From Candidatus Saccharimonadales bacterium (lineage in GTDB: Bacteria; Patescibacteriota; Saccharimonadia; Saccharimonadales; DATKHC01): a stretch of 64,000 nucleotides of DNA. The notes under the pieces are model-generated. The model was not told the DNA's origin and did not search any database. It was given only the letters and a program-made list of their open reading frames with translations. The number at the start of each line of letters is the position of its first letter. Position 1 is the first letter of the stretch. The translations under genes were made by a program, and so were the position numbers. This document shows positions 7,879-51,656 of the stretch, piece after piece. Where the stretch lies: positions 22,036 to 86,035 of the forward strand of contig DATKHC010000010.1 of the NCBI GenBank assembly GCA_035510465.1, written 5' to 3'.

Positions 7879-7987
7879 AAATTAGACTCCCTTCTTTATT
7901 TAATGACTATAGAATAAAACAGCTTATGTCAGTTTTGCAAATCGCCTGTGTATAAGTGTAGCTTCTGAGGCCACCATCTTTAATGAA

Positions 7988-8272
7988 TTAATCTGGTAGT
8001 TGCCCACCTGGGATTGAAGATACAAATAACATTTCTGGTCGAATTGTAGACTCTACGCTGACACTATCACTTACGATCCCGGTACTGGCCACTGCCACTG
8101 CCGTACCATGACGAATCATTTCTGAGAATTGATGAGCACTCAGATCAGGAGTATAAATCCTCATGGACTCAACCACTCCTTGCCCGAGGCAATTTGGGGG
8201 ATAGTGGTCGCTTGTTCCATCTCCAGCAGAGGTTTCAGGAGGTCGCCTTTGGTCGAAAGTTCTAGTTACCAT
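7988..8272 (-). CDS. Hypothetical protein
   Basis: 94 aa ORF with no recognisable motif. Weak call. Confidence 0.25.
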   Translation of the reverse strand: MVTRTFDQRRPPETSAGDGTSDHYPPNCLGQGVVESMRIYTPDLSAHQFSEMIRHGTAVAVASTGIVSDSVSVESTIRPEMLFVSSIPGGQLPD

Positions 8273-8449
8273 TTTTTTGTTTTTACTACTTATTTAATTG
8301 TACTCCTATTGTAAAGGCTTGTGCTTAATTGGGTCAGAAAGTTTCTTAAGGTTCGAGCACGCTCGTTACTAGATCGCACAGGTTTATTAATCTATCCTTA
8401 GGGTACTAATAGGGGCAAATTATGCTAGCTCATGATGGCGATGTGACGA

Positions 8450-8806
8450 TTATAGGATATCGTCTAGTTTACTAAGTAGTTCGTGCTGCTCCGGGTATTT
8501 TGCAGAATGCTTTTTACTGATTGCTTTGTGGTTAGCAAGAGTAGAGTGTTTGTGGCAGGTTTTATAAGGAGTGCCATCTACTTTAATACGACCTATCCTC
8601 CAGCAATTAACGCATTTATGGTGCTTATATACGGCAATAATTGAACCCAGTATTGCAAATTCGGCTAAATCACTACCAAATCCAGACCAAAAGTTGTACC
8701 ACATGCTTCCCGTAGGAGGTATGTGAGTACCAGTTACGTTTAATAACCAGTGCCAAATATCCATGGGTTCATCTCCTTTTTTGAAGTAATAAACTAATGA
8801 TACCAA
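8450..8806 (-). CDS. Hypothetical small protein with hydrophobic N-part and C-terminal Cys/His cluster
   Basis: Contains YKHHKCVNCWRIGRIKVDGTPYKTCHKH, zinc-ribbon-like. The true start may be the internal Met (MDIWHW). Confidence 0.4.
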   Translation of the reverse strand: MVSLVYYFKKGDEPMDIWHWLLNVTGTHIPPTGSMWYNFWSGFGSDLAEFAILGSIIAVYKHHKCVNCWRIGRIKVDGTPYKTCHKHSTLANHKAISKKHSAKYPEQHELLSKLDDIL

Positions 8807-9306
8807 ATGCCGTTAACTGGCTGGGGGTCGTCTCCAGACCGATTTCAGAACTTTTTAGCACCTAAATTTGTAAATATCAATAACCCCTTTCAACGTATGA
8901 CTATGAGTAGATATTTAGAGTGTCTGATAGCGCAAAAGAACTTCCGATTGATATGAGAGAAAGAATAGACGTAGAGGCCGTAGAGACAGAATGGCGTAAG
9001 GTTATTGAAAGTGGAGTACTAATTCACCACGTGAAGATGGTTATACGCCAAGGCCTAGCCTCATAGAACAAATTGATATTACTCTTCGAAGATCTGGTTG
9101 GCTTAAGGGGAAAGCCACTAAGTTTTGCACTCGGTCAACTTACTATCAATGTATTTATATTAACCATTAATTACTGAAATGGTTTTAATTAATTTTCACT
9201 TCAATCCGTAAGCATAATAACTTTCTTATATAATATACTTGCTTAAAACACATATATAGTGTACTCTATTTATCATTAAATAAATTAATTTTTTGGAGAA
9301 GTCTAG

Positions 9307-9492
9307 ATGAGTGGTTCAAACTCACCAGTAACTCAGGTAGCCGCTACAGGGACAACTATCGCAAGTACATCATTACTTCCGTTTACGCATGGAAATAAGA
9401 CTGGTACATATGTACTGATTGTTGCGATATCTTGCGCGCTTATTGTCTTGTTAAGCAAGCTGATTAAACACCTTGCCGCAAAGTCTCTTTAG
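9307..9492 (+). CDS. Small tail-anchored membrane peptide (61 aa) with sorting-signal-like C-terminus
   Basis: No signal peptide. The C-terminus reads LLPFTHG, then a TM segment (TYVLIVAISCALIVLL), then a KLIKHLAAKSL basic tail. A TAG stop sits immediately upstream of the ATG. First gene of the sortase-EPS operon. Confidence 0.45.
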   Translation: MSGSNSPVTQVAATGTTIASTSLLPFTHGNKTGTYVLIVAISCALIVLLSKLIKHLAAKSL

Positions 9493-9535: not shown

Positions 9536-10186
9536 ATGCATCGACCATCTATAAGTATTGCTAATTGGCGAATTTGGACAGTCACGGGGATCATTTATAT
9601 CGGATTCACGATGCTATTCCTGTTACCGGTTTTTGAGCAGCACCTTGCTACGATAACCGTAAATAAAGATCTAACAAGCTACCTGGGGTCTATTAAGCAA
9701 GATAAAAAGCCGATTTCTAGCCCCAGTCTCATTAGTGGTACACCAATCTCCATCTCAATTAATCGGTTAGGCGTTAATTTGCCGATAGAGAAGGGTTATT
9801 ACGATAATCTAGACGGTACTTGGACACTTAATAATTATCATGCATTCGTTGATGCTTCAACGGTTGCTAATCCAGTTGTAAGCAATGCGACTACCGGTAA
9901 TGCATTTATTTACGCTCACGACTTTGAAAACCTATTCGAAAAAACTAGTCAGTTAATCCCTGGAGACCTTGTAAACATAACTACATCGAACGACTATATA
10001 TTTACTTATGAATATCAATCAGGCGCAATAGTTGAACCATCAAGTACTTATATTCTTACCCAACAAGGTAATAAGGATCAACTTACCTTAATGACTTGTA
10101 GCGGGGCATGGTATCAAAATCGTCATGTTATGTACTTTTCGTTTCTAAATGTACAACCGCTAAAAAGTAAGACGGCTCAAACATGA
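9536..10186 (+). CDS. Sortase-family transpeptidase
   Basis: N-terminal TM. Sortase motifs ISINRLGVNLPIEKG, GNAFIYAHDF (His), LIPGDLVNI, LTLMTCSG (TLxTC with catalytic Cys) and a downstream NRH Arg. Confidence 0.7.
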   Translation: MHRPSISIANWRIWTVTGIIYIGFTMLFLLPVFEQHLATITVNKDLTSYLGSIKQDKKPISSPSLISGTPISISINRLGVNLPIEKGYYDNLDGTWTLNNYHAFVDASTVANPVVSNATTGNAFIYAHDFENLFEKTSQLIPGDLVNITTSNDYIFTYEYQSGAIVEPSSTYILTQQGNKDQLTLMTCSGAWYQNRHVMYFSFLNVQPLKSKTAQT

Positions 10187-11460
10187 TTGAAGACTCTGTA
10201 ACATTTATTTGCATTCTGGCCATTTTCAACTTGGTCCGGATGATGCTATATCTTGTTGGAAGCGACGTTTATAGCTATAAAAACCTAAAGCGAAAAAGTC
10301 AGAAAAAGCATAGCTTTAGGCCAACTGTCAGTTTAGTTGTCCCATGCCACAATGAAGAAGGCTTAATTGGAACTACGCTTGATTGCCTGAGTCGAATAGA
10401 CTATCCGAGAAATAAACTCCAAGTAATTATTGCCGACGACGGTTCGACAGATTCAACTCTTAAAATAGTTAAATCCTTCATCAGAAAAAATAAAGCTGGC
10501 GTCCAAATGGAAGTCTATAGCCAAAAAAATAACCATGGCAAGGCCGAAGCATTAAATAATGCCATGAAGCGTCGTGCGACCGGTAGTTTAATCATGTGCT
10601 TGGACGCCGATTCGCTTATAGCGGCTGACGGTATTAAAAAGGCCGTTGAATATTTCCGTGACCGTAATGCTGTGGCCATGGCCAGTAACGTTAACATTAT
10701 CGAAAACGGAACTATTATAGGACTTGCCCAACGGATTGAATATCTTATCTCCTATCATATGAAAAAGGCTCAAACTATTTACAATATCGAATATATCATC
10801 GGCGGGATAGGATCTATGTTTCGCCGAAGTATCTTAGAAAAAGTTTCATATTACGATACCAACACAATGACAGAAGACATTGATCTGACAATGAAAATAA
10901 TAAGCCTCGGTAACAAGAAAAACCGAGTTGTTTATGCTGCGGACTGTATTACATTCTCCGAAGCCGTTCCTTCGTTTAAGTCATTGATCAAGCAGAGGTA
11001 TCGGTGGAAATACGGTCGTCTACAAACGTTTATTAAAAACTATCACTTATTCTTTTCGACAGATAAAAGGTACACAAAAGCGCTATCCTGGTTTATTTTG
11101 CCATATGCCATTATTCAGGAACTGCTGTTTATCTTAGAACCTCTTGTCGTAACTCTTGTAATTGGATCAGCTATTTACTTCAAGCAACCAAGGATAATTC
11201 TTTTTGCAATTGCTATTATTAGTTCTTATATATGGGTTAATATTTGGTCAACCGTTCATCTATCAATTAAAGAACGAGCCCGACTTAGTATATTTGCTCC
11301 GGCAATGTATGTAATTTTATATACCCTCTCAGTAGTTGAGTATATAGCTTTGATTCAAACAATTATTAGAATACCGTTCATTAAAGATAGTATTTCAAAC
11401 AAAAAAACATCTTGGGTTTCACCTGAGAGAAGCGGGACAGCCAAGGAGGCTTTAATATGA
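10183..11460 (+). CDS. Membrane-integrated processive family-2 glycosyltransferase (PgaC/IcaA/cellulose-synthase-like)
   Basis: VVPCHNEE, IIADDGSTDST, DxD in CLDADS, and QRYRWKYG, the QxxRW processivity motif. C-terminal TM helices. 4-bp overlaps (ATGA) with both neighbours. Confidence 0.8.
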   Translation: MIEDSVTFICILAIFNLVRMMLYLVGSDVYSYKNLKRKSQKKHSFRPTVSLVVPCHNEEGLIGTTLDCLSRIDYPRNKLQVIIADDGSTDSTLKIVKSFIRKNKAGVQMEVYSQKNNHGKAEALNNAMKRRATGSLIMCLDADSLIAADGIKKAVEYFRDRNAVAMASNVNIIENGTIIGLAQRIEYLISYHMKKAQTIYNIEYIIGGIGSMFRRSILEKVSYYDTNTMTEDIDLTMKIISLGNKKNRVVYAADCITFSEAVPSFKSLIKQRYRWKYGRLQTFIKNYHLFFSTDKRYTKALSWFILPYAIIQELLFILEPLVVTLVIGSAIYFKQPRIILFAIAIISSYIWVNIWSTVHLSIKERARLSIFAPAMYVILYTLSVVEYIALIQTIIRIPFIKDSISNKKTSWVSPERSGTAKEALI

Positions 11461-13211
11461 GATCACTTAAAAATAGAATAGCTTACGTTGTCGTGGGTTT
11501 AGTTTATGCCAGTGTATTATTTTTTATTCCAGTACCGAGCGCTAAAGCTGACTCATCCAGTAATATAGTTGCCAATGGCAACCTTGAACAGAGTAGCGGA
11601 TCACCAGCAGAGCCAGTTGACTGGTCGCCTGAAAGTTGGGGAGTAAACAGCAGCACATTTAATTATTTAACTACCGGATACAATAGCTCTAACTCCGTAC
11701 AAACAATAGTTTCAGGGTATTCTAGCGGCGATGCGAAGTGGATATTTAACCCTGTAAGTATAACCGGAGGGAATAGTCACCAATATACAGACTGGTATGA
11801 GTCAAGTGCTGTAACTAATATTTGGGCAGAGTACACATTAAATGATGGTACAACTCAGTATGTTTGGTTAGGAGCTGATCAGGCTGCTTCAAGCTGGACA
11901 GAAACATCCGAAACATTTACTGCACCCTCCAATGCAGTAAGTGTTAGCGTCCTTCATGTTATAAATGCTAATGGGCAGCTTACACTAGATGATGTTTATT
12001 TATCAGTTCCTTGTACACCTACTTACGTTAATGGATTAGCTAATGGCAGTTTTGATCAAACTTGCCCTAATAGCCCCAATGTACCGTCCGGGTGGTTTAC
12101 ACAAACCTACGGTCCGGACCCTGCAGACTATGGCTACAGCACTACTGATTACAATGGCTCACCAGCAGTTACAATTACTAATAGTTCAGCCAATGACGAA
12201 GCCGGCTGGACGACTAATATACTTTCTCCGCTAAGTAATCAACGCTACCAATTGAGTTTCTGGCAAGAAGGGACTACCTATGTCTACGCATATGTTAATG
12301 AAACTCTAACGAATGGTTCTACGCAATCTGTATCGTTAATGTCGGCACCTTCTACCGCAGGTATATTTGGTACGAATCCTCCTACTTGGTCACAGTATAC
12401 AGATGCATTCGTAACACCTACCAATCTCCAGTCGATGCAGATAGTCATTGCTACAAGTGGAGAAGGAACCTTAGCATTAGCTAACGTAACTTTAAACCTT
12501 TTGACTAACCAAAACCCAACAATATTTAATAGCGGTATGGTTAGCGTAACACTCGATGACAATTTTGTTGATCAATATACAAACGGAGTTAAAACATTAA
12601 ATGAGGATGGATTAAAGGGAACATTTTACGTAGTCGGTGGAACAATAGGTACTAAAGGTTATATGACCCGATCTCAGCTAATCCAAACTGCCAACGATGG
12701 AAACGAAATAGCATCACATCAATATCATTTATCTGATGAGGTAGAGTTAAGCACTTCAACTTTGGTTAGTGAAATAACAGGCAATATTGCCTATCTGCAA
12801 CAAATGTTGGGTTCACAATATCCAATCACAGATTTTGCTAGTCCATACGGCTCGTACACATCCTCTGACACTGATACAGTTATGCAATATGAGCAATCCG
12901 ACCGAACAACAGATGGAGAAATGAACACGAAAGCTAATCTTGACCTTAGCCAAATACATGCTCGTTTGGTATTGCCTACCACCACGCCAGCTGAAGTTGA
13001 ATCGTGGATAGCTCAAGCTCAGACGGAGCATGACTGGTTAGTACTGGTCTATCACGGCATTACTAGATCCCCACTTAACTCCGAGGAAGCTCAATATGCT
13101 ACTAAGCCAGGAAATTTTATAAAAGAAATGTCTTACTTGGAAGCTAGCGGTATTACCGTCGACCCAGTTAATCAAGCACTCACTTCGCTTGAAGCTCAAA
13201 TTAATCAATAA
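11457..13211 (+). CDS. Secreted polysaccharide deacetylase (CE4/NodB domain) with two N-terminal CBM4/9-like modules
   Basis: Signal peptide present. Two roughly 150 aa W/Y-rich repeats each begin NGNLEQ / NGSFDQ. The C-terminal CE4 motifs are VTLDDNF (TFDD-type) and SHQYH (HxxH). PgaB/IcaB-like. Confidence 0.75.
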   Translation: MRSLKNRIAYVVVGLVYASVLFFIPVPSAKADSSSNIVANGNLEQSSGSPAEPVDWSPESWGVNSSTFNYLTTGYNSSNSVQTIVSGYSSGDAKWIFNPVSITGGNSHQYTDWYESSAVTNIWAEYTLNDGTTQYVWLGADQAASSWTETSETFTAPSNAVSVSVLHVINANGQLTLDDVYLSVPCTPTYVNGLANGSFDQTCPNSPNVPSGWFTQTYGPDPADYGYSTTDYNGSPAVTITNSSANDEAGWTTNILSPLSNQRYQLSFWQEGTTYVYAYVNETLTNGSTQSVSLMSAPSTAGIFGTNPPTWSQYTDAFVTPTNLQSMQIVIATSGEGTLALANVTLNLLTNQNPTIFNSGMVSVTLDDNFVDQYTNGVKTLNEDGLKGTFYVVGGTIGTKGYMTRSQLIQTANDGNEIASHQYHLSDEVELSTSTLVSEITGNIAYLQQMLGSQYPITDFASPYGSYTSSDTDTVMQYEQSDRTTDGEMNTKANLDLSQIHARLVLPTTTPAEVESWIAQAQTEHDWLVLVYHGITRSPLNSEEAQYATKPGNFIKEMSYLEASGITVDPVNQALTSLEAQINQ

Positions 13212-13333
13212 TAATCATCGCTGTGTCACTTTGAAAATGTAGTGATATTATCTGTCGTTTTGAGTTTGAGGGATTTTGTAATATCATGCGGTTTCTAATT
13301 TATACGTAATCTTGATTCGGATAAAATGCGAAA

Positions 13334-13366
13334 CCGCTTATAGGAATCGAGTCGGAATTCCGTACC
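13334..13366 (-). repeat. Dispersed intergenic repeat, copy A (diverged; CGGAATTCCG palindrome)
   Basis: CCGCTTATAGGAATCGAGTCGGAATTCCGTACC. Reverse orientation of consensus GGTACGGAAYTCAACCTCGATTCCCAGCCAWAAGCGG. Confidence 0.5.
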
Positions 13367-13372
13367 ACTTAA

Positions 13373-13777
13373 TTGACAGTAGAACACATATGTTATAATC
13401 AATACATGAGTGATGTTTTTGAGATACAGACACCAGCAGAACCTGATGTAAGGTTTTATGAAGCTTTCAAAGCTATTGGGAGTGAACATGGCTACCAAGT
13501 AGAATGTGTAGGAGACACAATAGACGGGCAAACTATTTACCACGCCTTGATAATGACCCGTACTGAATACGACACTCTACTTGCTGAAGTCAACGAAAAA
13601 GAGCGAAGAGATTTTGAAAGTATCACTTTAATGCCAGGTGAAAGACGGGAGCCCTTCAGGCCTCACGAAGTTCTTCCATGGGAATTCTTTATTGAGCAAG
13701 AGGGTCTAGTTAGCGGATATCCAACCCGGAAGTCTGCATTACTTGCCTCACTGAAAAAAGTATTTTATCCGAATTAA
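13373..13777 (+). CDS. Hypothetical protein (possible start at internal MSDVFE)
   Basis: 134 aa ORF bracketed by repeat copies A and B. No recognisable motif. Confidence 0.45.
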   Translation: MTVEHICYNQYMSDVFEIQTPAEPDVRFYEAFKAIGSEHGYQVECVGDTIDGQTIYHALIMTRTEYDTLLAEVNEKERRDFESITLMPGERREPFRPHEVLPWEFFIEQEGLVSGYPTRKSALLASLKKVFYPN

Positions 13778-13784
13778 CGCCAAG

Positions 13785-13820
13785 CCGCTTATGGCTGGGG
13801 ATCGAGGTTCAACTCCGTAC
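13785..13820 (-). repeat. Dispersed intergenic repeat, copy B
   Basis: CCGCTTATGGCTGGGGATCGAGGTTCAACTCCGTAC, between convergent gene ends. Confidence 0.6.
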
Positions 13821-13821
13821 T

Positions 13822-14277
13822 CTATGACTGTGAATTACCAACCACAATCATTGCACAAGCGAATGCTTTTTCGTCTCGAGTTCTAACGAAAAGAGTATTC
13901 TGTGCTCTTTCTACGGGATTGTTAACTAGGTCATAGAACCCAACTCCACTAGGATTATCCTTGCCGTATCTCGTAAGCCAATCTGTCTCGTACTCATCGC
14001 CCAAAGCTTCCTCGAATTCAGATACGGCTTCATGAGGATGTTGGCCGGTATCGGGCATCATTAATAGAACGTGGCTTTCGTCTTCAATTGGCACCAAGGC
14101 TAATATTCCTTTAAGTGCTCTTGCAGAGGAATTGCCCTGGTAATCGACGATTCTAGCCCCCTCAGGAATGCTATAACTAGGGTCAACAATCGCTATGTGA
14201 TCGCCGTGCCCTGTTTCTTCTAGAGCTTTGAGCAGGACGCCGTTTATTCCTCTATCAATTCCTTTAAGTGGTGGCAT
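13822..14277 (-). CDS. RbsD/FucU-family sugar mutarotase-like protein
   Basis: 151 aa. The N-terminus GINGVLLKALEETGHGDHIAIVDPSYSIP resembles the RbsD/FucU GH(G/T)D core. Confidence 0.5.
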   Translation of the reverse strand: MPPLKGIDRGINGVLLKALEETGHGDHIAIVDPSYSIPEGARIVDYQGNSSARALKGILALVPIEDESHVLLMMPDTGQHPHEAVSEFEEALGDEYETDWLTRYGKDNPSGVGFYDLVNNPVERAQNTLFVRTRDEKAFACAMIVVGNSQS

Positions 14278-14364
14278 AATTTCTCCTTCTTAAGATATAT
14301 TTAAGACCTAACAGATAGGAATTGCAAGCTTGAGCAGTAAGTAGATTTACCAATAGATAAAGAT

Positions 14365-14399
14365 GCTTATGGCTGGGATTTGAGGTTGAATTCTGTACC
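14365..14399 (-). repeat. Dispersed intergenic repeat, copy C
   Basis: GCTTATGGCTGGGATTTGAGGTTGAATTCTGTACC. Confidence 0.6.
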
Positions 14400-14417
14400 A
14401 TTTAATCAAGAGCTTTC

Positions 14418-15344
14418 TTAAATCAAAGAACCATATATAACTATATTGTTGCTATAGTGGTGGGTTTGTTCACTAAATACCCCACCACAAGTAATCAATC
14501 TAAGACCAGCGTAGTCAACGTTCCCATATACAAGTTGGGTTGGGAAACTATTTTGCGGATACTCTCTAAGAGCATCGACTTTAAACCTGGCAGTAGTCCC
14601 ATCAGCCCTAACTACATCAATTTCATCGCCTGGCTGAAGCAACCTTAAGTCCCAAAAGACACCAATACCACCTACGTGATCTACGTGACCAACTATAACT
14701 GAAGCCCCAATTGAACCTGGAGTTGGTGAACCTGTGTACCAGCCGGTGGTTGTATAGTCACTTGGCGGAGTTAAACTCCCGTCTGGTTGCAGACCATCGG
14801 GAAATACCGAAGCGTCAACTTCAATGCTCGGAATTTGAATTTCGACTGGCGTAGAACTAGGCATCGAAAGGGGTACAGCCGGTGTAACAATAGTACTAGA
14901 TTTTATAGCACCGGTGTCTGCCGTATTAATATTTATTCGGGCTACACCATAAACACTAGGTCCAAAAACAAACATCCCCGCAACTCCGGCCATGATAATA
15001 ATTAGACTGGCTGGATTTATTTGAGAGAAGTATTTCGAATTATTAACAGATTGCTGAATTATATTGAGTCGTGATCTGCGCTTTATGCCAGAGAAAGAGA
15101 TTTCCCTAAACGGCATGAAGTACAGAGGCAAGACTATCTGAGCCAGCAGTTTCGAACGATTGTTAGGTTTAGTTCGGAAACGTCTAACCGAGACAGAAAA
15201 ACGAATCTTGGAAAACCGTACTTGCCAACGACGAGCTCGAGTGTGATCTTTCCTAGCTGAACTCCTATTAAAATAGGAAATTGACCGCTTGGCGAGCACC
15301 TTTGCTTTATCAGCGAGGGGCTTTTTGATGCCTAACACGGTCAA
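14418..15344 (-). CDS. Class F (actinobacterial-type) sortase with long basic cytoplasmic N-extension
   Basis: IQIPSIEVDASVFPDG...GWYTGSPTPGSIGASVIVGHVDH...LLQPGDEIDV...FPTQLVYGNVDYAGLRLITCGG. About 130 basic residues precede the TM. Confidence 0.7.
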   Translation of the reverse strand: MTVLGIKKPLADKAKVLAKRSISYFNRSSARKDHTRARRWQVRFSKIRFSVSVRRFRTKPNNRSKLLAQIVLPLYFMPFREISFSGIKRRSRLNIIQQSVNNSKYFSQINPASLIIIMAGVAGMFVFGPSVYGVARININTADTGAIKSSTIVTPAVPLSMPSSTPVEIQIPSIEVDASVFPDGLQPDGSLTPPSDYTTTGWYTGSPTPGSIGASVIVGHVDHVGGIGVFWDLRLLQPGDEIDVVRADGTTARFKVDALREYPQNSFPTQLVYGNVDYAGLRLITCGGVFSEQTHHYSNNIVIYGSLI

Positions 15345-15376
15345 TCTCCTTATCTAAATCTATACGAAAACCAGGG

Positions 15377-15970
15377 TTACTGGTTTTTACTCAGGCGTCG
15401 TACGCCCAAGAAAGCTATAGCAGCAGAACCGACTAGTCCGAGAGCTGCAGCAACGTCTAGAGTTTTTACACCACCGAAACCAGCGTTAACTGGACCGACA
15501 GGCGCAGCAACGGGTGCTGGGGCCGGGGCTTGGGCTGTAGCAGCTACAGGTGGAGTAGGTGTTGGGGTTGTTGTTACAGGAGGAATAACGACTGGCTGAG
15601 CACATGCTGTGGCCAGAGTTACGGTAGCAGTACGGCTACGCATTGTACTATCGCTAGGGAAGTTACCCTCAAGCATTAATGTGTCGCTACCTGCTTTTGT
15701 GCCATCAGCAACCTGAGTAAAATCCTCAGTGCTTTTTGCAGCTACAGTTGTTCCGACAGGAACAACAGCAGTGTCACTTGAACCTGTGATTGTTAGTGCT
15801 TCATTTTCGACAGAGTTATCTACAACCCATGTAATTTTAAAAGAACCATCAGTTTGACACTGTCCGGTTCCTGTTAATCCGTAAGTCCAGGCAAGAGCTG
15901 AACCACTCATAAATGCTACTGTTGCTAGGGTTGTTATTCCGCTCGCAGCTGTTAATAAAACTCGTTTCAT
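15377..15970 (-). CDS. Secreted Pro/Thr/Ala-rich surface protein with C-terminal hydrophobic anchor and RR tail (candidate sortase substrate, no canonical LPXTG)
   Basis: Signal peptide MKRVLLTAASGITTLATVAFMSGSALA. PTPTPP/APAPAP linker. C-terminus VNAGFGGVKTLDVAAALGLVGSAAIAFLGVRRLSKNQ. Lies immediately upstream of the class F sortase on the same strand. Confidence 0.6.
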   Translation of the reverse strand: MKRVLLTAASGITTLATVAFMSGSALAWTYGLTGTGQCQTDGSFKITWVVDNSVENEALTITGSSDTAVVPVGTTVAAKSTEDFTQVADGTKAGSDTLMLEGNFPSDSTMRSRTATVTLATACAQPVVIPPVTTTPTPTPPVAATAQAPAPAPVAAPVGPVNAGFGGVKTLDVAAALGLVGSAAIAFLGVRRLSKNQ

Positions 15971-16148
15971 CTGACTTCTCCCAGTTAGATTAGATTATTG
16001 CTAGTAATATTACACTTAGATTACAACTTGTCAACTATATTGTTTTATTCTTATGTTTATTGGGGTGGTAAGAAGTTATGGATTTTTAGCTATTTTAAAC
16101 TGGATTTATCCTTAATTTTTTTGCCATCTCTGTGGCAGAATAAAGAAT

Positions 16149-16499
16149 TTGTACTATACTTCTATGCTGATGGAAAAAGATTCAGATCGTGAGAGAATTC
16201 CGAAGAAGGCATTGTGGCTGACCCTAGGCACTATATGCGTAGGGTCAGCGTTTAATGATCCATTGGTTGTTTCTGCAGGGTTTATGTCTGGTGGTTACTG
16301 GATGCTGAGGTATGGGGTTCGAGTTGCAAACTCGATTGAGCGTTGGATGGATTCATTCTCCCCCCAAGAAGCTGGTTTTGAGCTTAGTCCGGAGGTAAGT
16401 GAATACTTAAAGACGTACGACGCTATTAGCCCAGAAGATAGCGATATATTATTGGCTACGGCAGAAGCAATAGTCAATAATCCTGATAAGCTAATTTAG
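16149..16499 (+). CDS. Hypothetical protein
   Basis: 116 aa ORF with no recognisable motif. Confidence 0.4.
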   Translation: MYYTSMLMEKDSDRERIPKKALWLTLGTICVGSAFNDPLVVSAGFMSGGYWMLRYGVRVANSIERWMDSFSPQEAGFELSPEVSEYLKTYDAISPEDSDILLATAEAIVNNPDKLI

Positions 16500-16531
16500 G
16501 CTTTTATAAGCTTATAGATCAACGTTTACTA

Positions 16532-17208
16532 ACCTAGGGCTGATTGTAATTTAGCTAGGTTTACTACGATAAAAGAATGGTCTTTCTGTGATAGCAAGCC
16601 TTCTTTGAAAAGAAGCTCAATCGCCCTGCTGGCGGTCTCTCGGTTCATGCTAATAGAATCAGCGATATCCTGATGGGTGATTAGGAACGTCAATGAATAC
16701 TCCTGCCCCTAGGTGTTTGCCAAACCTTTTAGCCAGGTATATTATTTCTGCAATAATTCTTTCTCTGGCTCTGGCTGATCTAAACTCTAAGGTTTGGATC
16801 CTCTGTGTATACAGAGCAATGATGTTTACGGTCTGATTTAACACTTCCTGAGCCAACCATTGATTATTCCCCGTGTCTTCGCGCAACCTATCTTTGGATG
16901 CTTTTATAACGGTAACTTGACATTGCTTGGTAAGACAAGCCTGTTATATTTGTCCCGTCTAGCGCCCAAGGAAGCGGAATAAACTCGCCTGCTTGATGGA
17001 TTAGCAAAAGGTTCCCATTTCCGTTTCGTGATACAGAATACGCTTTAACAAAACCAAGCTTTATAAGATAAACTCCATCAGGCTCTTCAAGGCCATTAAT
17101 AATAGTCTCTTCTTTAGAGAACTCCATAATTAAACCATCATTGAAATGAGATATTATGCTTTTATCTTTGGTCTCCGAAGCTAGTGCAGCCCGTAAACTA
17201 GTATCCAT
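16532..17208 (-). pseudogene. Crp/Fnr-family regulator pseudogene (two frameshifts)
   Basis: Three consecutive minus-strand segments in three different frames. The cNMP-binding domain is 17208..16888. The middle segment, 16886..16659, reads RSARARERIIAEIIYLAKRFGK. The HTH, about 16680..16532, reads ITHQDIADSISMNRETASRAIELLFKEGLL. The intact paralog at 36936..37586 aligns with them collinearly. Confidence 0.7.
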
Positions 17209-31134: not shown

Positions 31135-32370
31135 ATGAGCAAGCGAGCACCAGCAAAGAAGCATAAAAAAAAGAAGTATCCAGCTTTATTGGTGGCCGTC
31201 TTAATAATCCTGGTGATCGCAGGCCCAATTTTCTTCTTGTTCGTTCGTTTCAGCTCAATAGGTCAGATCCACCCCAGCATCTCAGGGCCAAATCAAATAT
31301 CTACGGGCAGTTTAAATATAAGCTGGCCTGCATCAACAGAGGACGCCATAGGCGTTAGTGGGTATGGTCTGCTTAGCGAAAGCTCCAACCAGGCCGCCTC
31401 CCCAACAGCAAGTATCGCCAAAATTTTAACCGCACTATCTGTATTAAGGGTAAAACCATTGGTTCTTGGGGAGCAGGGACCAGTCATTACTATCTCTTCT
31501 GCCGACGTTAATTCATACTTAACTTACCAGGCTGAAGGCGGTTCAGTTGTTAAGGTTTCTCAGGGTGAACAAATTACGGAGTATCAAGCACTTGAAGCTA
31601 TGCTGCTTCCTTCGGCTAATAACATGGCAGACACTCTCGTCAATTGGGCTTTTGGATCTATGGATAACTACACTAGCTATGCAAACAATTACGCCAAGTT
31701 AATAGGAATGAGCTCAACACATATAGCGGATGCCAGCGGATTCTCACCTCAAACCGTCAGTAGTCCGACAGATCTTATAGTGCTCGGACAGACTGCTCTA
31801 AACAATCAGACAATTGCTCAAATTATTGCCCAAAAATCTGCCGTTATTCCAGTTGCTGGTACGGTTTCAAACGTGAATTGGTTACTTGGACAGAACGGAG
31901 TAATCGGGATAAAGACTGGTAACACAGACCAGGCTGGTGGATGTTATTTATTCGCGGCCAATTACGACGAAGGTAAGCAGGTTATCACAATCATCGGCGA
32001 TGTGAGCAAGGCAAGCACACTACAGAATGCCATAGACGACGGGGCAAATCTAATAGACCAAGTAAGGCCACAGATCCAAACGATTAACTTAAGTGCGACC
32101 AGTCTTGAGAACGTAGAATACAAATCTACCTGGGGCCAGAACAGTTCCGCAACTGCCACAGACCAGGAGACTCTATCTTATATCCCAGGAATGATTTTAA
32201 AAGAGCAGGTTAGCACTAAATCCATCAGGGTCCCTTCCATGCAAGGTAAGATTGTCGGACAAATAACCATATCTTCTGGCGCAGACTCCATATCATCAGC
32301 CTTAGCGCTAAAAAACAGCATAAACAAACCTGGCTGGCTATGGGTCCTGGAACACCCAAGTAAAATTTAA
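31135..32370 (+). CDS. D-alanyl-D-alanine carboxypeptidase (peptidase S11, PBP5/6-like)
   Basis: SxxK (ASIAKI), SxN (PSANN) and KTG (IKTGNT) motifs. N-terminal TM/signal. Confidence 0.8.
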   Translation: MSKRAPAKKHKKKKYPALLVAVLIILVIAGPIFFLFVRFSSIGQIHPSISGPNQISTGSLNISWPASTEDAIGVSGYGLLSESSNQAASPTASIAKILTALSVLRVKPLVLGEQGPVITISSADVNSYLTYQAEGGSVVKVSQGEQITEYQALEAMLLPSANNMADTLVNWAFGSMDNYTSYANNYAKLIGMSSTHIADASGFSPQTVSSPTDLIVLGQTALNNQTIAQIIAQKSAVIPVAGTVSNVNWLLGQNGVIGIKTGNTDQAGGCYLFAANYDEGKQVITIIGDVSKASTLQNAIDDGANLIDQVRPQIQTINLSATSLENVEYKSTWGQNSSATATDQETLSYIPGMILKEQVSTKSIRVPSMQGKIVGQITISSGADSISSALALKNSINKPGWLWVLEHPSKI

Positions 32371-32939
32371 GTAATCAACTCTGTGACCGCTGATGGTTCC
32401 ATGTCTGGATAGTCAGTGTACCTTGTGAACTTTTGGTGTTTTTTCCATAAGCCTTCGAGTTCGCCTTTTGAGACAGCTTTTTTAGATAAATACCACGCTA
32501 GCTTAGCTGTGCCTTTTTTATTATCCTTAAGCTCAAGTTCAAAAAGTTTTGTGACTTTTATTGGCTTTCTGTACGAAACCCGATAAAGCACTAAGTTGTT
32601 GGAGTTAGTAATCACAACCCAATTTAGGCCTAGACCAAGAGCGTAAGCAAGTGCCTGCGAAAGGTGTTGAGGTGACAACTTAGTATTAAGCGGTTTAACC
32701 TCGATCACAAATATCTGCTTACCCATTATTTCGACTAGATAGTCGGCAAAACCTCCGCCAATATGTGGTTCAATTTTTATATCTACAAGCTCTTTGTAGC
32801 CTAGCACATCTGTTAATAGATGGTTTACAAGTATCCTGGTCGATGATTCAGATAGATTATCTAGCTGTTTGTTTAAATAAAAACGTCGGTAGCGATTTAG
32901 TTTTCCTGTTATACCCGCATCTGTGGGTGATAGGATCAT
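32367..32939 (-). CDS. Stand-alone PD-(D/E)xK nuclease-fold protein (HsdR N-terminal domain-like)
   Basis: GGGFADYLVE...IFVIEVKP (D...ExK). 190 aa. Directly abuts the IS30 element. Confidence 0.5.
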   Translation of the reverse strand: MILSPTDAGITGKLNRYRRFYLNKQLDNLSESSTRILVNHLLTDVLGYKELVDIKIEPHIGGGFADYLVEIMGKQIFVIEVKPLNTKLSPQHLSQALAYALGLGLNWVVITNSNNLVLYRVSYRKPIKVTKLFELELKDNKKGTAKLAWYLSKKAVSKGELEGLWKKHQKFTRYTDYPDMEPSAVTELIT

Positions 32940-33079
32940 AACTTGCGCCTCTTAACCGAGTTTTATTCGGTCTAAAAAGATACGTTAACATGCTTTTGCT
33001 CAAATTGCAAGTTATAAACCTTGCAATCTAGCCCGAAGTGCAACGTAAACACTAACAACTAAAAAGCACCTCTGCTCAG

Positions 33080-34145
33080 ATCTTGTAGACTAGTGGTTGT
33101 AACACAACTAAATACAAGGAGAACAGAGATGCACTTTCATCTTACACAACAACAACGTATAGAGCTAAGCCTTTTGCTTAAGCTCGGTCACACGCAACAT
33201 AATATTGCACTGGTACTAGGAGTTAACCCAAGTACCATAAGCCGGGAGCTAGGTCGGAATCGTAGAGCTAGCGGCATATACCATCCGGCTTCGGCTAGAT
33301 TGAGAGCTGGCACACGACGAGCAAATGCCAATGCTCTACGTACTAAGCTACTGGCAAATATACAGCTAGCAGAAGCTGTAGAGCGTAAACTCATTCGTAA
33401 TGATTCACCAGACCAAATAGCTGGTTGGATGCGCGACACCAAACGGAGAGTCAGGGTTTGTGCTCAAACTATCTATGACTGGGTATACTTGCATGCTCGG
33501 CATTTACTGAAACACCTTCATTGCCGTAAAGGTAAGTACCGTCTAACTAGAGAAACTGCTCTTAAGAAAGCTTTTAGGGATAAGCTGAAAGAAGCTAGGC
33601 GTATTAGCGCTAGACCAGCCCATATCCAACGACGAAGTCGGTATGGCCATTGGGAAGGAGATACGGTTGTTGGCAAAGGCCATAGTGGCTGTATTGCTAC
33701 ATTCGTGGAACGCAAGAGTGGTTATCTAATGGCGGTTAAGTTGGCTCGAGGGACAGCCAAGAATTTTGAGGTAGCTGCAGAGCGTAGTTTTGCTGTCATT
33801 ACCAAAAGCTACCGCAAAACCCTAACCCTAGACAATGGCGCTGAGATGAGCAACTACGAGGAAATTGAACTAAGTACTGGTTTACGGATTTACTTTGCTC
33901 AACCCTATCATTCGTGGGAGAGAGGTACTAACGAGAATACCAATGGATTACTTAGGTTCTACTTCCCAAAGCAAATGAGGCTTGAAAGTATTACTCAAGA
34001 AATGCTTGACGTAGCCGTCAAGCAGCTAAATACTAGACCAAGGAAACGACTAGGCTACAAGACACCAGAGCAAGTCTTTAAGTTAAAAAGGTAATGTTAC
34101 GATTCGGGTTGGAATCTAAGGTTTAGTCGGAACCTAGTAACTCAG
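33080..34145 (+). mobile_element. IS30-family insertion sequence (boundaries approximate)
   Basis: Single DDE transposase ORF. The left end TGTAGACTAGTGGTTGTAACACAAC (33084-) resembles IS30 IRL TGTAGATTCAATTGG... The right end, around GGAATCTAAGG...AACCTAGTAA, is only loosely inverted-repeat-like. I could not delimit a target-site duplication. Confidence 0.55.
33130..34094 (+). CDS. IS30-family DDE transposase
   Basis: N-terminal HTH IALVLGVNPSTISRELGRN. HWEGDTVVGKGHSGCIATFVERKSGY, the IS30 catalytic region. An alternative upstream start at 33093 is possible. Confidence 0.85.
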
Positions 34146-48436: not shown

Positions 48437-48575
48437 GGTGCCCTTATGTTTTTTAGTAATCTTAGCCCTACTTAATTATCAATATAGACTAAGCACAATC
48501 ATTATACAACAAATAACAGATAGCCAATTAACTATTCACTCAATGCCTAGCATCAGAGTAAGGATTTTTGCATCT

Positions 48576-48610
48576 GGTTCGAATCTCCAAACCCCAGCCA
48601 ACCATAAGCA
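48576..48610 (+). repeat. Dispersed intergenic repeat, degenerate copy H
   Basis: GGTTCGAATCTCCAAACCCCAGCCAACCATAAGCA. The 3' half matches the consensus CCCAGCCAAGCGTAAGC at 15 of 19 positions. Confidence 0.35.
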
Positions 48611-48631
48611 ATTTAACTTATTAGTAGATAT

Positions 48632-48934
48632 TTATGCCGAAACAAAGAACTTCAGGCCCCTTGACCTATCGTCATCGTAAAAATCAAGGACGTTTTCATA
48701 AGAGTCTATTCCCATAAATCCATCCGTAGTTAAGACCTCGATACATTCCGGCCTATCTTCTCCTAACCCAACTACACTATGAACTGCAGCACCTAGTCTT
48801 GTGCTTTCGTCTCTTCCACCTAAAACAGCGTGGCGCCCCAGGGCAATTGGGGGATTAATAGGATATCCTTCTTCAACAACGTGGTCGGGTGCGGGTGGAC
48901 AATCGAACTCCCTAGCTACTATTGTGCCGTTCAT
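48632..48934 (-). CDS. Hypothetical protein; in frame with the upstream ORF across a single TAA
   Basis: 100 aa ORF with no recognisable motif. Confidence 0.35.
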   Translation of the reverse strand: MNGTIVAREFDCPPAPDHVVEEGYPINPPIALGRHAVLGGRDESTRLGAAVHSVVGLGEDRPECIEVLTTDGFMGIDSYENVLDFYDDDRSRGLKFFVSA

Positions 48935-48964
48935 CCAATACCCAAAACGGTGGCAGTTTGTTAC

Positions 48965-49297
48965 TTATCTTCGTCCAGGTACCATAAGACCCGTATATTC
49001 ACTTCTGACTTGGTTAAATCGGGGTTTATCTACAAAAAATCGAGTATAAAACTCACCTAGTTTACGGGCTACATCTTCAGGCATTTCTATGACTTCAAGC
49101 TCGGCATCCTTTGGATTGTACCCTGATTCAGGAACGGTATAGTCAACTCTTGTCCAACGGGTTGGTGACATATCTTGGACAATTTCCATACCTACAACAC
49201 GCCTATATGGTTGTTTGGTTGTCCTACCGTTTAGGTGAACATAAGTCGACGGAACAGTGTATAGTTGAACTCGCTCAATACCTGTCATAATAAACAT
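48965..49297 (-). CDS. Hypothetical protein
   Basis: 110 aa. The stop TAA at 48965-48967 is followed 10 codons later, in the same frame, by the next ORF. Confidence 0.35.
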   Translation of the reverse strand: MFIMTGIERVQLYTVPSTYVHLNGRTTKQPYRRVVGMEIVQDMSPTRWTRVDYTVPESGYNPKDAELEVIEMPEDVARKLGEFYTRFFVDKPRFNQVRSEYTGLMVPGRR

Positions 49298-49357
49298 ATT
49301 ATAGCATAACTGTTATAGATTATCAACTATAACTAGTGTAGTTAGGTCGTTTTATGG

Positions 49358-49388
49358 GGTACGGAACTCAACCTCGATTCCCAGCCAA
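49358..49388 (+). repeat. Dispersed intergenic repeat, copy D
   Basis: GGTACGGAACTCAACCTCGATTCCCAGCCAA. Confidence 0.6.
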
Positions 49389-49472
49389 TATTTCACCTAT
49401 GTCAACATTTGTGCCACCTCGGTTTGAATCCTTGTTGAATATTTGCGTCTGCGCATATAAGATTATATAATA

Positions 49473-49922
49473 TTGGTCATGGCAACCCAACTCGAATTTC
49501 AAGACCCACAGGTGCAGAGTGCGCTTGAAAATTTTAGTGAGTACGTCCTGACTAGTAACTTCAGAACCAGGATAGTACATCAAATTACACGGGTTATTGA
49601 TTTAGCTGAGTACTGCGAACATCCAAAACAAAAAATAGCGAACCTAAAAGAAGCTCTTGGGGCAGAAGCTTTATTTGCAGTTTGGAGACAACCTCTCAGT
49701 AACACCGAGGGCAACTTAAACCTCATCGTGAAAGTTGACGGAGACGGACGTATTATTGATGGATCTCCAGTACACGTTGGGATTTTAGTTGATGACCATC
49801 CACAAATGACCTGTTTTGGTTTCACTCCTGATGAACTAAGGGTTGTTGAGTATTTTGCGCTTGCTCAAGATCAACTACCCTGGCAACCCAACACTAGTGG
49901 ATTAATCTATCATTCTCGTTAA
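49473..49922 (+). CDS. Hypothetical protein
   Basis: 149 aa ORF bracketed by repeat copies D and E. Confidence 0.45.
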   Translation: MVMATQLEFQDPQVQSALENFSEYVLTSNFRTRIVHQITRVIDLAEYCEHPKQKIANLKEALGAEALFAVWRQPLSNTEGNLNLIVKVDGDGRIIDGSPVHVGILVDDHPQMTCFGFTPDELRVVEYFALAQDQLPWQPNTSGLIYHSR

Positions 49923-49949
49923 AGAGCCGGATTAATTACTTATCAAACC

Positions 49950-49989
49950 GTACGGAACTCAACCTCGATTCCCAGCCAAGCGTAAGCGG
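49950..49989 (+). repeat. Dispersed intergenic repeat, copy E (longest)
   Basis: GTACGGAACTCAACCTCGATTCCCAGCCAAGCGTAAGCGG. Confidence 0.65.
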
Positions 49990-49995
49990 TTTGAC

Positions 49996-50412
49996 CTAAG
50001 TCAGTTTTAGAAACTCAGCCGGAGTTAGTATTTGAATATTCTCGTATTTCTTTATGACCGTTAAGTCTTTATCGCCGCTAATAATATAGCTGCATTTGCC
50101 AATAACCGCTGTCTCTATAATTTTATTGTCGTCTATATCTCTAGAGACATTAATTACACGACTTCCAAGAGGTACCCATATTGCATATTTTCTAAGCAAC
50201 TTCTCGTATCTTCCTATGCCAGGTATGTGTTCCGGGAACCTAGAGGTTATGATGCGCCTGAGCTCAGACATGATCTCTTCTGACATCACAGGTCTTATTA
50301 CCTTATCGGGGATTAAATTTGTAACTTTTCGAGGAGTTCCTCCGAATACCAGAGCAGAGACAAGAACATTAGTATCAACTACAGCTCTAACTGGCTTTTG
50401 ATTGCTTTTCAC
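49996..50412 (-). CDS. PIN-domain toxin (VapC-like)
   Basis: VRAVVDTNVLVSAL (first acidic Asp) and IISGDKDL, typical PIN signatures. 138 aa. Confidence 0.8.
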   Translation of the reverse strand: MKSNQKPVRAVVDTNVLVSALVFGGTPRKVTNLIPDKVIRPVMSEEIMSELRRIITSRFPEHIPGIGRYEKLLRKYAIWVPLGSRVINVSRDIDDNKIIETAVIGKCSYIISGDKDLTVIKKYENIQILTPAEFLKLT

Positions 50413-50644
50413 TCTTGTACTCTGTAATCTTGTCGTAAACTTGCTGCTCGCTAGTTATTCCTGTCTGTTGGCCCAATTTATTTCCCCAATTGAATAGGTC
50501 TTCCCATTCTTTTCGGCGATCTAGGTCATCTAATGCCAAGCGACGGAAATACTCACTTCGGCTGCCCATATCTTTTTTAACAGCTTCGTCTATTTCTTTT
50601 AAAAGTTTTTCGTCTAACGCGATATTTAGCGTCTTAGTTGCCAT
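50387..50644 (-). CDS. Ribbon-helix-helix (CopG/VapB-like) antitoxin
   Basis: MATKTLNIALDEKLLKEIDEAVKKDMGSRSEYFRRLAL. The likely start is the MATKT Met at 50644. Overlaps the PIN gene by 26 nt. Confidence 0.7.
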   Translation of the reverse strand: MATKTLNIALDEKLLKEIDEAVKKDMGSRSEYFRRLALDDLDRRKEWEDLFNWGNKLGQQTGITSEQQVYDKITEYKSEKQSKAS

Positions 50645-50703
50645 ATTATATTCTCCTTCTACACATATTGTATAGATATTGTATAGGCATGTCAACTTAA
50701 CGT

Positions 50704-50741
50704 GGTACGGAACTCAACCTCAATTCCCAACCAAGCGTAAG
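50704..50741 (+). repeat. Dispersed intergenic repeat, copy F
   Basis: GGTACGGAACTCAACCTCAATTCCCAACCAAGCGTAAG. Confidence 0.65.
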
Positions 50742-50766
50742 AATTTTAATTTGATATTATTAAATT

Positions 50767-50949
50767 ATGCCATCTCCTCGTGTAATTCACGAATTTGAAG
50801 TCGGAGTACCTCCAATAGGACACGATGACGAAAGAATATTGTCTCCAACTGAGACTAGAATACTGAAAAAGTTAATATTGGGCGGAGACGTTGATCAAGC
50901 CACTAACGACTCACTATTAAGTAAGTTTGCCGGATTTATGACAGTTTGA
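50767..50949 (+). CDS. Hypothetical small protein
   Basis: 60 aa ORF immediately after repeat copy F. Confidence 0.3.
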   Translation: MPSPRVIHEFEVGVPPIGHDDERILSPTETRILKKLILGGDVDQATNDSLLSKFAGFMTV

Positions 50950-50972
50950 ACTCTAGCAATAAATAGGATTAG

Positions 50973-51574
50973 CTATCCAGTTTTTTCAGCTAATAACGCC
51001 ATGTGACCCATGCCTGCACACAAACTAGCCCGCTGCCAACTATAATCAGCGTTATGGAAACCGTACTCTGCAAATCCATGTTCAAATTGATCGTTTATGA
51101 ATACTCCCTCAACTTCTGGGCCCATACACGCACAATTACCCATAACCTGTACTCCAATTCCACCAAGTTCTCTTCTGCCTGCTGAAAAACCCATGTGAGT
51201 TCGAGTTGATCTTTGCGGTGTCTCTTCCGGTAATTCATGCAGAGACCTATATGCATCTTGCATAACTCGCCAAGTATCGCTTAATAGCCCTGGGTTGCTA
51301 TCCACCCATTCTTGTAGCTTGGGGCTGGCTATTAGACGACCAGGATAGTCTGGTATGTAGAGGGGGTGTTTCCCGACTTCTGCTACATCTATACCTTCAT
51401 CGCGCTCAGTCCTAAATCTGAGTGACTATAATCATGGGGATCAAAAGAGTCTAAAGGGAGAGATTTATCGGCTATTAAGAAGACTTTGTCCTTGCTGTCA
51501 TAGCTAAATGGATAAAGAGTTGCTCCTGAGCCCTCTCTTGCAAGGTATTCAAAAAACTCGGGTACTTCAGCCAT
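50973..51574 (-). pseudogene. Frameshifted gene (two overlapping reading frames of one probable roughly 230 aa protein), unknown family
   Basis: ORF 51574..51389 ends in ...SAMKV. A second frame is open from 51425 to 50973 with a GTG 'start' at 51305. The two overlap over 51389..51425, so one indel would join them. Confidence 0.45.
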
Positions 51575-51627
51575 AGGTCTAATATATATTAAAATTTTAT
51601 TGAAAGCTAGTAACTTTTGTGATCTAA

Positions 51628-51656
51628 GTTACGGAATTCAACCTAGATTTCCAGCC
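51628..51656 (+). repeat. Dispersed intergenic repeat, copy G (diverged)
   Basis: GTTACGGAATTCAACCTAGATTTCCAGCC. Confidence 0.5.

Follow-up and report, generated by a model that had tools for sequence, protein, structure and literature searches.

Two repeat-bordered gene arrays

The stretch of DNA analyzed here, called the window, comprises 64,000 nucleotides (positions 22,036 to 86,035 of contig DATKHC010000010.1, assembly GCA_035510465.1, Candidatus Saccharimonadales bacterium). It contains a family of short direct repeats, which are found exclusively at the borders of small gene cassettes. Two arrays of such cassettes are present, array A at 13.3–14.4 kb and array B at 48.6–51.7 kb. Array A lies on the + strand between a polysaccharide deacetylase gene (11457–13211) and a class F sortase gene (14418–15344, - strand). 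It consists of two convergent genes bracketed by three repeat copies:

13334–13368, +, repeat copy A1, first of array A (nhmmer E 1e-6; E 8e-4 with a hidden Markov model (HMM) of array B copies only)
13373–13399, +, promoter-like site of the first cassette, read from the sequence: TTGACA, 15 nt, then TGTTATAAT (extended -10)
13406–13777, +, orphan cassette gene, 123 residues; 134 residues counted from TTG 13373
13785–13823, +, repeat copy A2, reading ..LWLGIEVQLRTL and stop
13822–14277, -, cassette gene, distant member of the RbsD/FucU family, 151 residues, Pfam PF05025 (RbsD_FucU)
14363–14401, +, repeat copy A3, last of array A, reading ..LWLGFEVEFCTI and stop

The original prediction placed three copies of one repeat and two convergent small genes at this locus. 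Both were found, and all three copies were recovered independently by the HMM of the array B copies. The copies had also been described as inverted; A1, A2, and A3 are mutually direct and are inverted solely relative to the array B copies at 49–51 kb, which lie on the - strand. The start-to-start spacing in array A is 451 and 578 bp. A2 and A3 share 79% identity over 39 nt. A1 is the weakest copy of the array, with 74% identity over 23 nt and a degenerate 5' side from which TGGCTG is absent; it reads ..LIGIESEFRTT followed by a stop codon. On its 3' side, A2 ends directly at the stop codon of the convergent RbsD/FucU-like gene, and 17 nt separate A3 from the 3' end of the sortase gene. An inverted repeat of 16 nt, 15/16 complementary, was seen with arms at 13312–13327 and 13762–13777 (TTGATTCGGATAAAAT and ATTTTATCCGAATTAA), 6–8 nt upstream of A1 and A2; the orphan gene and the second arm overlap at the gene's end.

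The promoter-like site at 13373–13399 is missing from the listing of the consensus promoter scan because of its 15-nt spacer. It ends 6 nt ahead of ATG 13406, and the mRNA of the first cassette is therefore probably leaderless. Because TTG 13373, the start of the 134-residue frame given originally, lies inside the -35 box, ATG 13406 is most likely the true start, giving a product of 123 residues. The orphan gene itself was confirmed. Its protein had no Pfam, NCBIfam, or PADLOC match and no relative among 5.8 billion protein clusters, where the sole match was the protein itself ("hypothetical protein VMR34_02430"). The AlphaFold2 single-sequence model was poor (predicted local distance difference test score 57.5) and insufficient for a fold search. 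The product of 13822–14277, predicted as an RbsD/FucU-like mutarotase, belongs to the RbsD/FucU family, matching PF05025 with E 2.5e-11 and 44.6 bits (cut-off 25) over profile positions 1–136 of 138. The mutarotase label has this distant Pfam family match as its only basis, which does not imply the activity; the NCBIfam L-fucose mutarotase equivalog scored 20 bits against a cut-off of 141. The class F sortase shares 100% identity with an NCBI protein from a Saccharimonadales metagenome-assembled genome. Exact-protein look-ups of the sortase (TTG start), the RbsD-like protein, and the IS30-family transposase described below matched no record. Logan assemblies of two runs from the same strain break independently at 14134 and 14312, inside and just upstream of the RbsD/FucU-like gene. 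The resulting gap of 178 nt may reflect population variation or low coverage in this cassette.

Array B contains five copies of the same repeat on the - strand. It is surrounded by a type IV pilus gene cluster with PilB-, PilC-, and pilin-like genes, and its features are as follows (ORF, open reading frame):

51626–51664, -, repeat copy B1, first of array B, directly 3' of the stop codon of a pilin-like gene; carries an in-frame stop
50702–50744, -, repeat copy B2, long form with CTTACGCTTGG, then a promoter-like site TTGACA..TATACAAT
49947–49989, -, repeat copy B3, long form
49356–49394, -, repeat copy B4
48570–48614, -, repeat copy B5, degenerate with internal deletions (E 0.29 with an HMM of array A copies only)
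48632–51574, -, cassette bodies of array B, comprising the following genes
ORF61 and ORF110, possibly one broken gene, with convergent ORF60
50387–50644, ribbon-helix-helix antitoxin (Pfam RHH_1, 5e-5), with 49996–50412, PIN toxin (Pfam PIN_3, 1e-16)
49479–49922, +, convergent ORF147, orphan of 147 residues
48965–49297 and 48632–48934, two small orphans, ORF110 and ORF100

The start-to-start spacing in array B is about 590–920 bp. Through B5, each border between cassette bodies, defined as transcription units or convergent ORF groups, has a repeat copy. The in-frame stop in B1 marks this copy as decayed. B3 and B4 have more than 30 identical bases in common, which is why Logan contigs of the same strain end within B3.

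Outside arrays A and B, profile scans of the window yielded one further copy at a third locus:

8819–8856, +, solo copy C1, degenerate with indels (nhmmer E 0.004 with an HMM of all 19 copies)

C1 is surrounded by small orphan ORFs, and a second sortase operon lies downstream of them. Besides C1, possible remnants were noticed by eye near 8313–8360 and 7922–7955, interspersed with two ORFs without family match (7988–8272 and 8450–8764, both - strand). The region 7880–8860 is a possible third, decayed mini-array. Arrays A (13334–14401, +) and B (48570–51664, -) are in inverted orientation about 34 kb apart, with the ATP synthase operon and other core genes between them. Recombination between the two arrays would invert the intervening segment. 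The cumulative GC skew showed no switch within the window.

One repeat family with a codon imprint

A 17-nt degenerate pattern of the repeat matched the window 6 times, compared with 0.07 matches expected. With an HMM built from four pilus-locus copies alone, A3 was recovered at E 6e-8, A2 at 7e-7, and A1 at 8e-4, and the next match had an E-value of 0.66. With an HMM built from A1–A3 alone, B3, B4, B2, and B1 were recovered at E 1e-8 to 4e-4, followed by B5 at 0.29. The similarity between the three copies and those at 49–51 kb, on which the original prediction depended, is well above chance by this cross-locus recovery. Alignment with the downstream copies defined a shared core with the consensus GCTTA(YGCT)TGGCTGGGNATCSAGNNNGARTTCCGWAC in a repeat of roughly 40–45 bp. 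Its 3' edge is sharp (CGWAC) and its 5' edge is ragged. The part ahead of the Trp codon is conserved as DNA only (GCTTA), its frame being interrupted by a 4-nt indel. The terminal inverted repeats that had also been considered were not found: no inverted copies were present within the arrays at E <= 100, so that the units have no terminal inverted repeats. The position of the repeat relative to the neighboring genes varies among upstream, downstream, and between convergent genes, and genes occur in either orientation relative to it. Promoter-like hexamers follow A1, B2, and B4 within about 10 nt, ahead of sense-oriented genes.

No RNA or hairpin features were detected in the repeat. ARAGORN reported 0 tRNA or tmRNA genes, and no fitting T-arm geometry was found, which ruled out a tRNA/tmRNA relic. 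A known RNA family was ruled out by Rfam scans, with 0 matches at the gathering threshold in the whole window and chance-level matches only at E <= 10 over 13200–14500. RNA and single-stranded DNA folds of both strands gave nothing stable or shared (z-scores -1.8 to +1.5). The alignment fold of the copies had 6 pairs, -3.2 kcal/mol, and almost no covariation, and a compensatory A-T to T-A pair (GCTTATGG versus CCGTA) failed in other copies when compared by eye. The scan for terminator-like sites found none, no RYYYAAC...GTTRRRY pair was seen in the repeat sequences of arrays A and B, and no dyad symmetry was common to the repeat variants. A hairpin, an attC site, and a terminator were ruled out on the lack of a significant or shared fold and of a terminator-like site. 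A CRISPR array was likewise ruled out, as the intervals of 310–920 bp hold complete genes, compared with repeats of 28–37 nt and spacers of 30–40 nt in CRISPR arrays. Ten cassette proteins were compared with the PADLOC defense-system models and gave 0 matches, so that a reading of the cassettes as a defense island was rejected.

Codon usage within the repeat was analyzed with 17 distinct copies. The variation is three-periodic, and one frame reads W-L-G-I-(E/Q)-x-E-F-R-T. Synonymous codons in this frame were observed for Gly (GGA/GGC/GGT/GGG), Arg (CGT/CGA/AGA), Leu (CTG/TTG), Ile (ATC/ATT), Glu (GAG/GAA), and Phe (TTC/TTT). At codon positions 1, 2, and 3, the copies require at least 11, 2, and 13 changes, both second-position changes falling in one hypervariable codon. 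When this codon was excluded, 9, 0, and 8 changes remained (binomial P = 0.001). Synonymous pairwise codon differences amounted to 350 in the W-L-G-I frame versus 18–250 in the five others, and the observed peptide identity was reached by 1 of 5000 column shuffles. Of the 21 copies with a frame open through EFRT, 20 have a stop within the next 1–6 codons. Based on the three-periodic codon variation and the stop codon, the core reads as the 3' end of an ORF and looks as if the final ~10 codons of a gene had been copied on their own. The in-frame ORF upstream of the copies is at most 69 codons long and mostly 14–40 codons, and a reading of the repeat as a mini-ORF was rejected because most copies lack an in-frame start codon. 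Fusion of the peptide to upstream cassette genes by frameshift or readthrough was also rejected, as the offsets were inconsistent (2, 2, 1, 0, 2, 1).

Several searches for a parent gene were performed. None was found by regular expressions in all six frames of the window and the loci, by a peptide profile against the PDB, by the peptides against Pfam and NCBIfam, or by back-translated patterns in IMG/VR. Concatenated peptide variants against 5.8e9 clusters (word-indexed) gave 3 word-sharing candidates, none with E <= 10, and a profile search of 1.84e9 representatives gave one match, P0122, which was judged unrelated; these database-scale searches are blind to a single 10-residue match, so that the absence of a parent is not proven. 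P0122 consists of tandem WLGIEVEV(K/R)AV and stems from a highly repetitive contig of 54% GC (JGI Ga0599629_00862, L017). In its regions 10001–10189 and 12650–16650, this contig carries a tandem 80-nt duplication encoding the P0122 peptide, satellite arrays of 43 nt, and numerous long repeats, both inverted and direct.

Other genomes and a natural junction at B5

A scan of one genome per species identified the repeat in one other genome, the closed 780-kb chromosome OY969420.1 (L002) of an uncultured, Saccharimonadales-like bacterium. The Crp-like protein encoded there and a window sequence share about 80% identity. A match in a Lewinellaceae genome (L001) was an intergenic chance match. In L002, an array of four to five copies adjoins a gene with a sortase-substrate-looking C terminus, and the copies separate a nuclease-toxin/CopG-like pair, an orphan, a small ORF, and a GNAT acetyltransferase gene. 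Synteny of this array with array A was rejected, since the Crp-like gene that the two loci have in common is on the opposite side. The Crp/Fnr-like gene of the window (16535–17208, - strand) is seemingly broken, with 10 stops in a single frame and only a 106-residue piece called; the L002 counterpart is intact, with 228 residues and about 80% identity.

In a metagenome scan, seven short contigs with the repeat were found, one of them identical to the window. In the remaining contigs the repeat is placed between HAD, APH-family, and DUF1801 genes and orphans. Across all loci the copies are spaced by 310–920 bp, and the units are 0.3–0.9 kb long with one or two genes. The arrays occupy at least three differing chromosomal contexts, and B2–B4 and the copies in other contigs are nearly identical despite their differing cargo. 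The proposal that the repeat-gene-repeat organization is not unique to the pilus locus was borne out by arrays A and B, C1, L002, and the metagenome contigs, with unrelated cargo in several genomes and loci. Different core types (GAG GTT, CAG ACC, and GAG TCT) coexist in one array (L002, L005), which suggests that each cassette brought its own core copy. No match to the repeat was obtained in GenBank phages or IMG/VR, and a phage or plasmid origin was rejected on this basis.

A difference between arrays was observed at copy B5. Over 2088 nt and three cassettes (50665 to 48578), the ENA contig L014, assembled with k = 141, shows 100% identity to the window. It then diverges at window 48578/48577, at most 1 nt from where the conserved core of B5 ends on its 3' side. 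On the window side the sequence runs from ...GGAGATTCGAA directly to CCAGATGC, into the pilA promoter, and on the L014 side from ...GGAGATTCGAA directly to TATCATTC, into unrelated DNA. The unrelated DNA has an antisense ORF that ends 38 nt from the junction and is CHAP/NlpC-P60-like by eye only. The 3' edge of B5 is a junction where arrays differ. L014 may represent this locus carrying one additional cassette, or a duplicate of the three-cassette block at another place. In both cases, the run of identical sequence stops at the core edge.

Two likely sortase substrates are encoded beside the sortase genes of the window, at 9307–9492 and 15377–15970. The C termini of their products contain LPFTHG... 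and ..PVNAGFG.., respectively, followed by a hydrophobic stretch and basic residues, and are unusual but resemble sorting signals.

Cassette borders and the enzymes that could act on them

The repeats can be understood as cassette-boundary recombination sites used in trans, with a function like that of an integron without being an integron, and we give this reading an even chance of being correct. According to the proposed mechanism, the chromosomes of Saccharimonadales would hold small mobile gene cassettes with the repeats as their borders. A unit would consist of a body of 0.3–0.9 kb and one core at its 3' side, with several sense genes preceded by a promoter-like site, and at several places in the chromosome such units would follow one another head to tail. 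Recombination with the junction at the 3' edge of the core, between CGWA and C, would lead to the gain, loss, or exchange of cassettes. The recombining enzyme would be supplied in trans, because no cassette encodes a recombinase, and it would recognize the core as double-stranded sequence rather than as a folded hairpin. Judging from its codon-like variation, the core may have descended from the last ~10 codons of an ORF, an origin it would share with the attachment sites of elements that integrate at gene 3' ends and with insertion sequence (IS) ends entered by the transposase frame. We infer action at the cores and the point of strand exchange from the anatomy of the arrays together with the one natural junction, and the acting enzyme is likewise inferred. 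The cargo is typical of cassette systems, with toxin-antitoxin genes, acetyl- and phosphotransferases, and an ORFan without relatives.

Several observations weigh against cassette mobility of this kind. No recombinase gene was found in or beside any array; the check consisted of Pfam scans or precomputed Pfam calls for most predicted genes of the window, with an IS30-family transposase as the sole recombinase-type match. No Phage_integrase-type match was present among the window ORFs scanned or the precomputed Pfam calls, which covered the window only, and no integrase was present in any array or locus fetched. No array is headed by an intact target gene, unlike in classical gene-3'-end islands, and searches of the window, PDB, Pfam, NCBIfam, and IMG/VR turned up no full-length gene with the repeat-encoded peptide at its end. 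The junction in L014 is the only natural junction seen and comes from a short, low-coverage metagenome contig; B5, where it lies, has no intact reading frame. Other strain-level contigs keep the cassette order of the window, and no circular or excised form was observed.

The arrays were compared with known systems. They resemble integrons and CALINs, which are clusters of attC sites without an integrase, in their head-to-tail units of 0.3–1 kb with one or two genes, in the single site-like repeat at the 3' side of each unit, in the toxin-antitoxin, GNAT, and APH-type cargo with many orphans, and in the lack of an adjacent integrase. The junction at the extreme 3' edge of the site is also comparable to that of integrons, which lies between G and TTRRRY. 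In contrast, integron attC sites are imperfect palindromes of 57–141 bp with R''/L''/L'/R' boxes that act as single-stranded DNA hairpins, whereas the repeat described here is ~40 bp long, non-palindromic, sequence-conserved, and unfolded, and bears a codon imprint. Integron cassettes are mostly promoterless and co-oriented; here both orientations occur, and several sense cassettes have a promoter-like site. The tyrosine recombinase IntI, attI, and Pc, which are not required for a CALIN, were not found next to the arrays, and several small arrays are present per genome.

Islands that integrate at gene 3' ends provide a further comparison. Staphylococcal cassette chromosome (SCC) elements such as SCCmec and SCC composites at rlmH, as well as e14 in icd, are of this type. 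Tycheposons target tRNA genes and form tandem-piling islands that integrate at the 3' end of the tRNA gene (bioRxiv 10.1101/2020.12.28.424599). As may also be the case in the present arrays, direct repeats flank the units of such islands as copies of the gene 3' end, successive insertions displace older units with degenerate repeats marking older events, and some units without their own recombinase rely on one in trans. Unlike in these islands, no intact target gene stands at the array head and no recombinase was found, the units are 5–50 times smaller, the arrays are located at several unrelated loci, and the parent ORF is presumed. In the pdif modules of Acinetobacter plasmids, XerC/XerD sites flank small modules, often with toxin-antitoxin or resistance genes, which are moved by a housekeeping recombinase. 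The pdif sites are dif-like sites of 28 bp with two 11-bp arms, imperfect dyad symmetry, and alternating orientation. Both systems have small modules bounded by short sites, and the recombinase of the present arrays would likewise be encoded elsewhere, whereas the core described here is always direct and has no dif-like arms.

A candidate relative of the repeat lies elsewhere in the window:

33015–34125, +, IS30-family insertion sequence, with transposase gene 33129–34094 (Pfam HTH_38 and rve; NCBIfam 262 bits versus 80)
33015–33044 and 34096–34125, imperfect terminal inverted repeats (IRs) of the element, 30 nt

The right end of the element reads GTTACGATTCGGGTTGGAATCTAAGGTTTA then GTCGGAACC. 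When the right IR and the next 9 nt were aligned with B2/B3, 24/31 positions matched with 2 gaps (TTACGCTT-GGCTGGGAATC-GAGGTTGAGT), from TTACG to GGTTnA. None of 2000 shuffles scored as well, and the right end was the top non-array match in the whole window for the B2 and B3 queries, with a score of 23–24 against a noise ceiling of 21–22. It was not recovered by the HMM of all copies. Joining the flanks of the element in an empty-site reconstruction formed no core. The element was taken as a lead only, as a candidate relative of the repeat and a candidate source of the trans-acting enzyme. Its left neighbor (32367–32939, HSDR_N_2) shares about 47% identity with the N-terminal ~130 residues of a protein encoded inside the L002 cassette array.

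The resemblance to this element allows a different account of the arrays. The cores would be orphan IS30-family right ends or mimics of them, bound by the resident DDE transposase, and arrays would arise by IR targeting of circular intermediates. The transposase stop codon lies 1 nt ahead of the right IR. Many IS have a transposase frame whose end falls within the right repeat or close to it, and a parent frame running into the right IR would explain the codon imprint. Mobile insertion cassettes and miniature inverted-repeat transposable elements (MITEs) are IS-derived units to which the arrays can be compared. IS30 inserts next to its own IRs, incomplete copies included, with the transposase acting in trans beside isolated ends (PMC9333248). 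This account nevertheless appears unlikely to us. The match exceeds the noise by 1–2 points, is missed by the HMM of all copies, and is confined to the long-form copies. The conserved core runs 9 nt past the position of the IS tip, and the transposase copy in the window stops before the IR and does not encode the peptide. Unlike IS30-family elements, mobile insertion cassettes, and MITEs, the arrays have one end type only, with all copies direct, no inverted left-end-like sequence, and no evident target duplications of 2–3 bp, and their units hold ordinary genes instead of a transposase. They are accordingly not built like transposons or mobile insertion cassettes, and the joined IS flanks do not rebuild a core.

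Three further explanations were weighed. If the repeats were portable homology and no dedicated enzyme existed, DNA could be taken up by type IV pili, and RecA-dependent recombination between cores of 35–45 bp could swap, delete, or add the intervening segments. The location of array B within a type IV pilus gene cluster, an AddA/RecB-like helicase-nuclease gene in the window, and the more than 30 identical nt that copies within an array can share (B3/B4, where Logan contigs break) agree with this, and the junction in L014 is compatible with a crossover anywhere in the shared core. We consider it quite unlikely, since it leaves unexplained why the same core is kept across genomes with wholly different cargo, why the 3' boundary is sharp, and why the variation is codon-like. 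Many neighboring copies, such as A1–A3 with 74–79% identity, are too diverged for homologous recombination, and forty bases are near the lower limit for RecA-dependent exchange, which also counts against it. Inert relics of old duplications or decayed gene-3'-end elements, with the arrays as fossils, would account for the decayed end copies (A1 without its 5' part, the stop in B1, indels in B5 and C1), the mutual divergence of the array A copies, and the failure to find a parent gene or an integrase. Such fossils are very unlikely in view of the near identity of B2–B4 and the copies in other contigs with differing cargo. The strain-level difference at a core edge in otherwise 100% identical DNA is recent, and the uniform small units with intact genes speak against random decay. 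Least plausible, in our judgment, is a cis-acting expression element (terminator, insulator, operator, or small RNA) or translated mini-ORF with the array structure as a secondary feature. In its favor are the constant location of the repeat between transcription units, the promoter-like hexamers no more than 10 nt after A1, B2, and B4, and the codon imprint, which could mean translation. Opposed to this are the lack of Rfam, tRNA, or tmRNA matches, of a stable or conserved fold, and of a terminator-like site, the inconsistent position and orientation relative to the neighboring genes, and the absence of an in-frame start codon from most copies.

Returning to cassette-boundary recombination sites, we tentatively propose a more specific form, which we hold to be possible but not probable. 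The arrays would belong to an undescribed gene-cassette capture system of the Saccharimonadales, a lineage of the Candidate Phyla Radiation (CPR), with non-palindromic double-stranded DNA sites of ~40 bp that carry the imprint of an ORF 3' end and are maybe domesticated IS30-type right ends. A trans-acting recombinase or transposase would stack, exchange, and delete promoter-bearing single-gene cassettes at several loci.

The ultra-small epibionts of the CPR have few recognizable mobile elements, yet they carry strain-variable accessory genes, and little is understood of how these are acquired. With a short, searchable site marking the points of entry and exit of accessory genes, the flexible gene pool could be charted more easily. 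The repeat could also lead to the responsible enzyme and could offer defined insertion sites for emerging genetic tools. If the site is a domesticated IS end or a mimic of a gene 3' end, an integron-like function would have been assembled from different parts. If the more specific form proposed above is true, the cassette system of the Saccharimonadales would be an independently evolved functional analogue of the integron.

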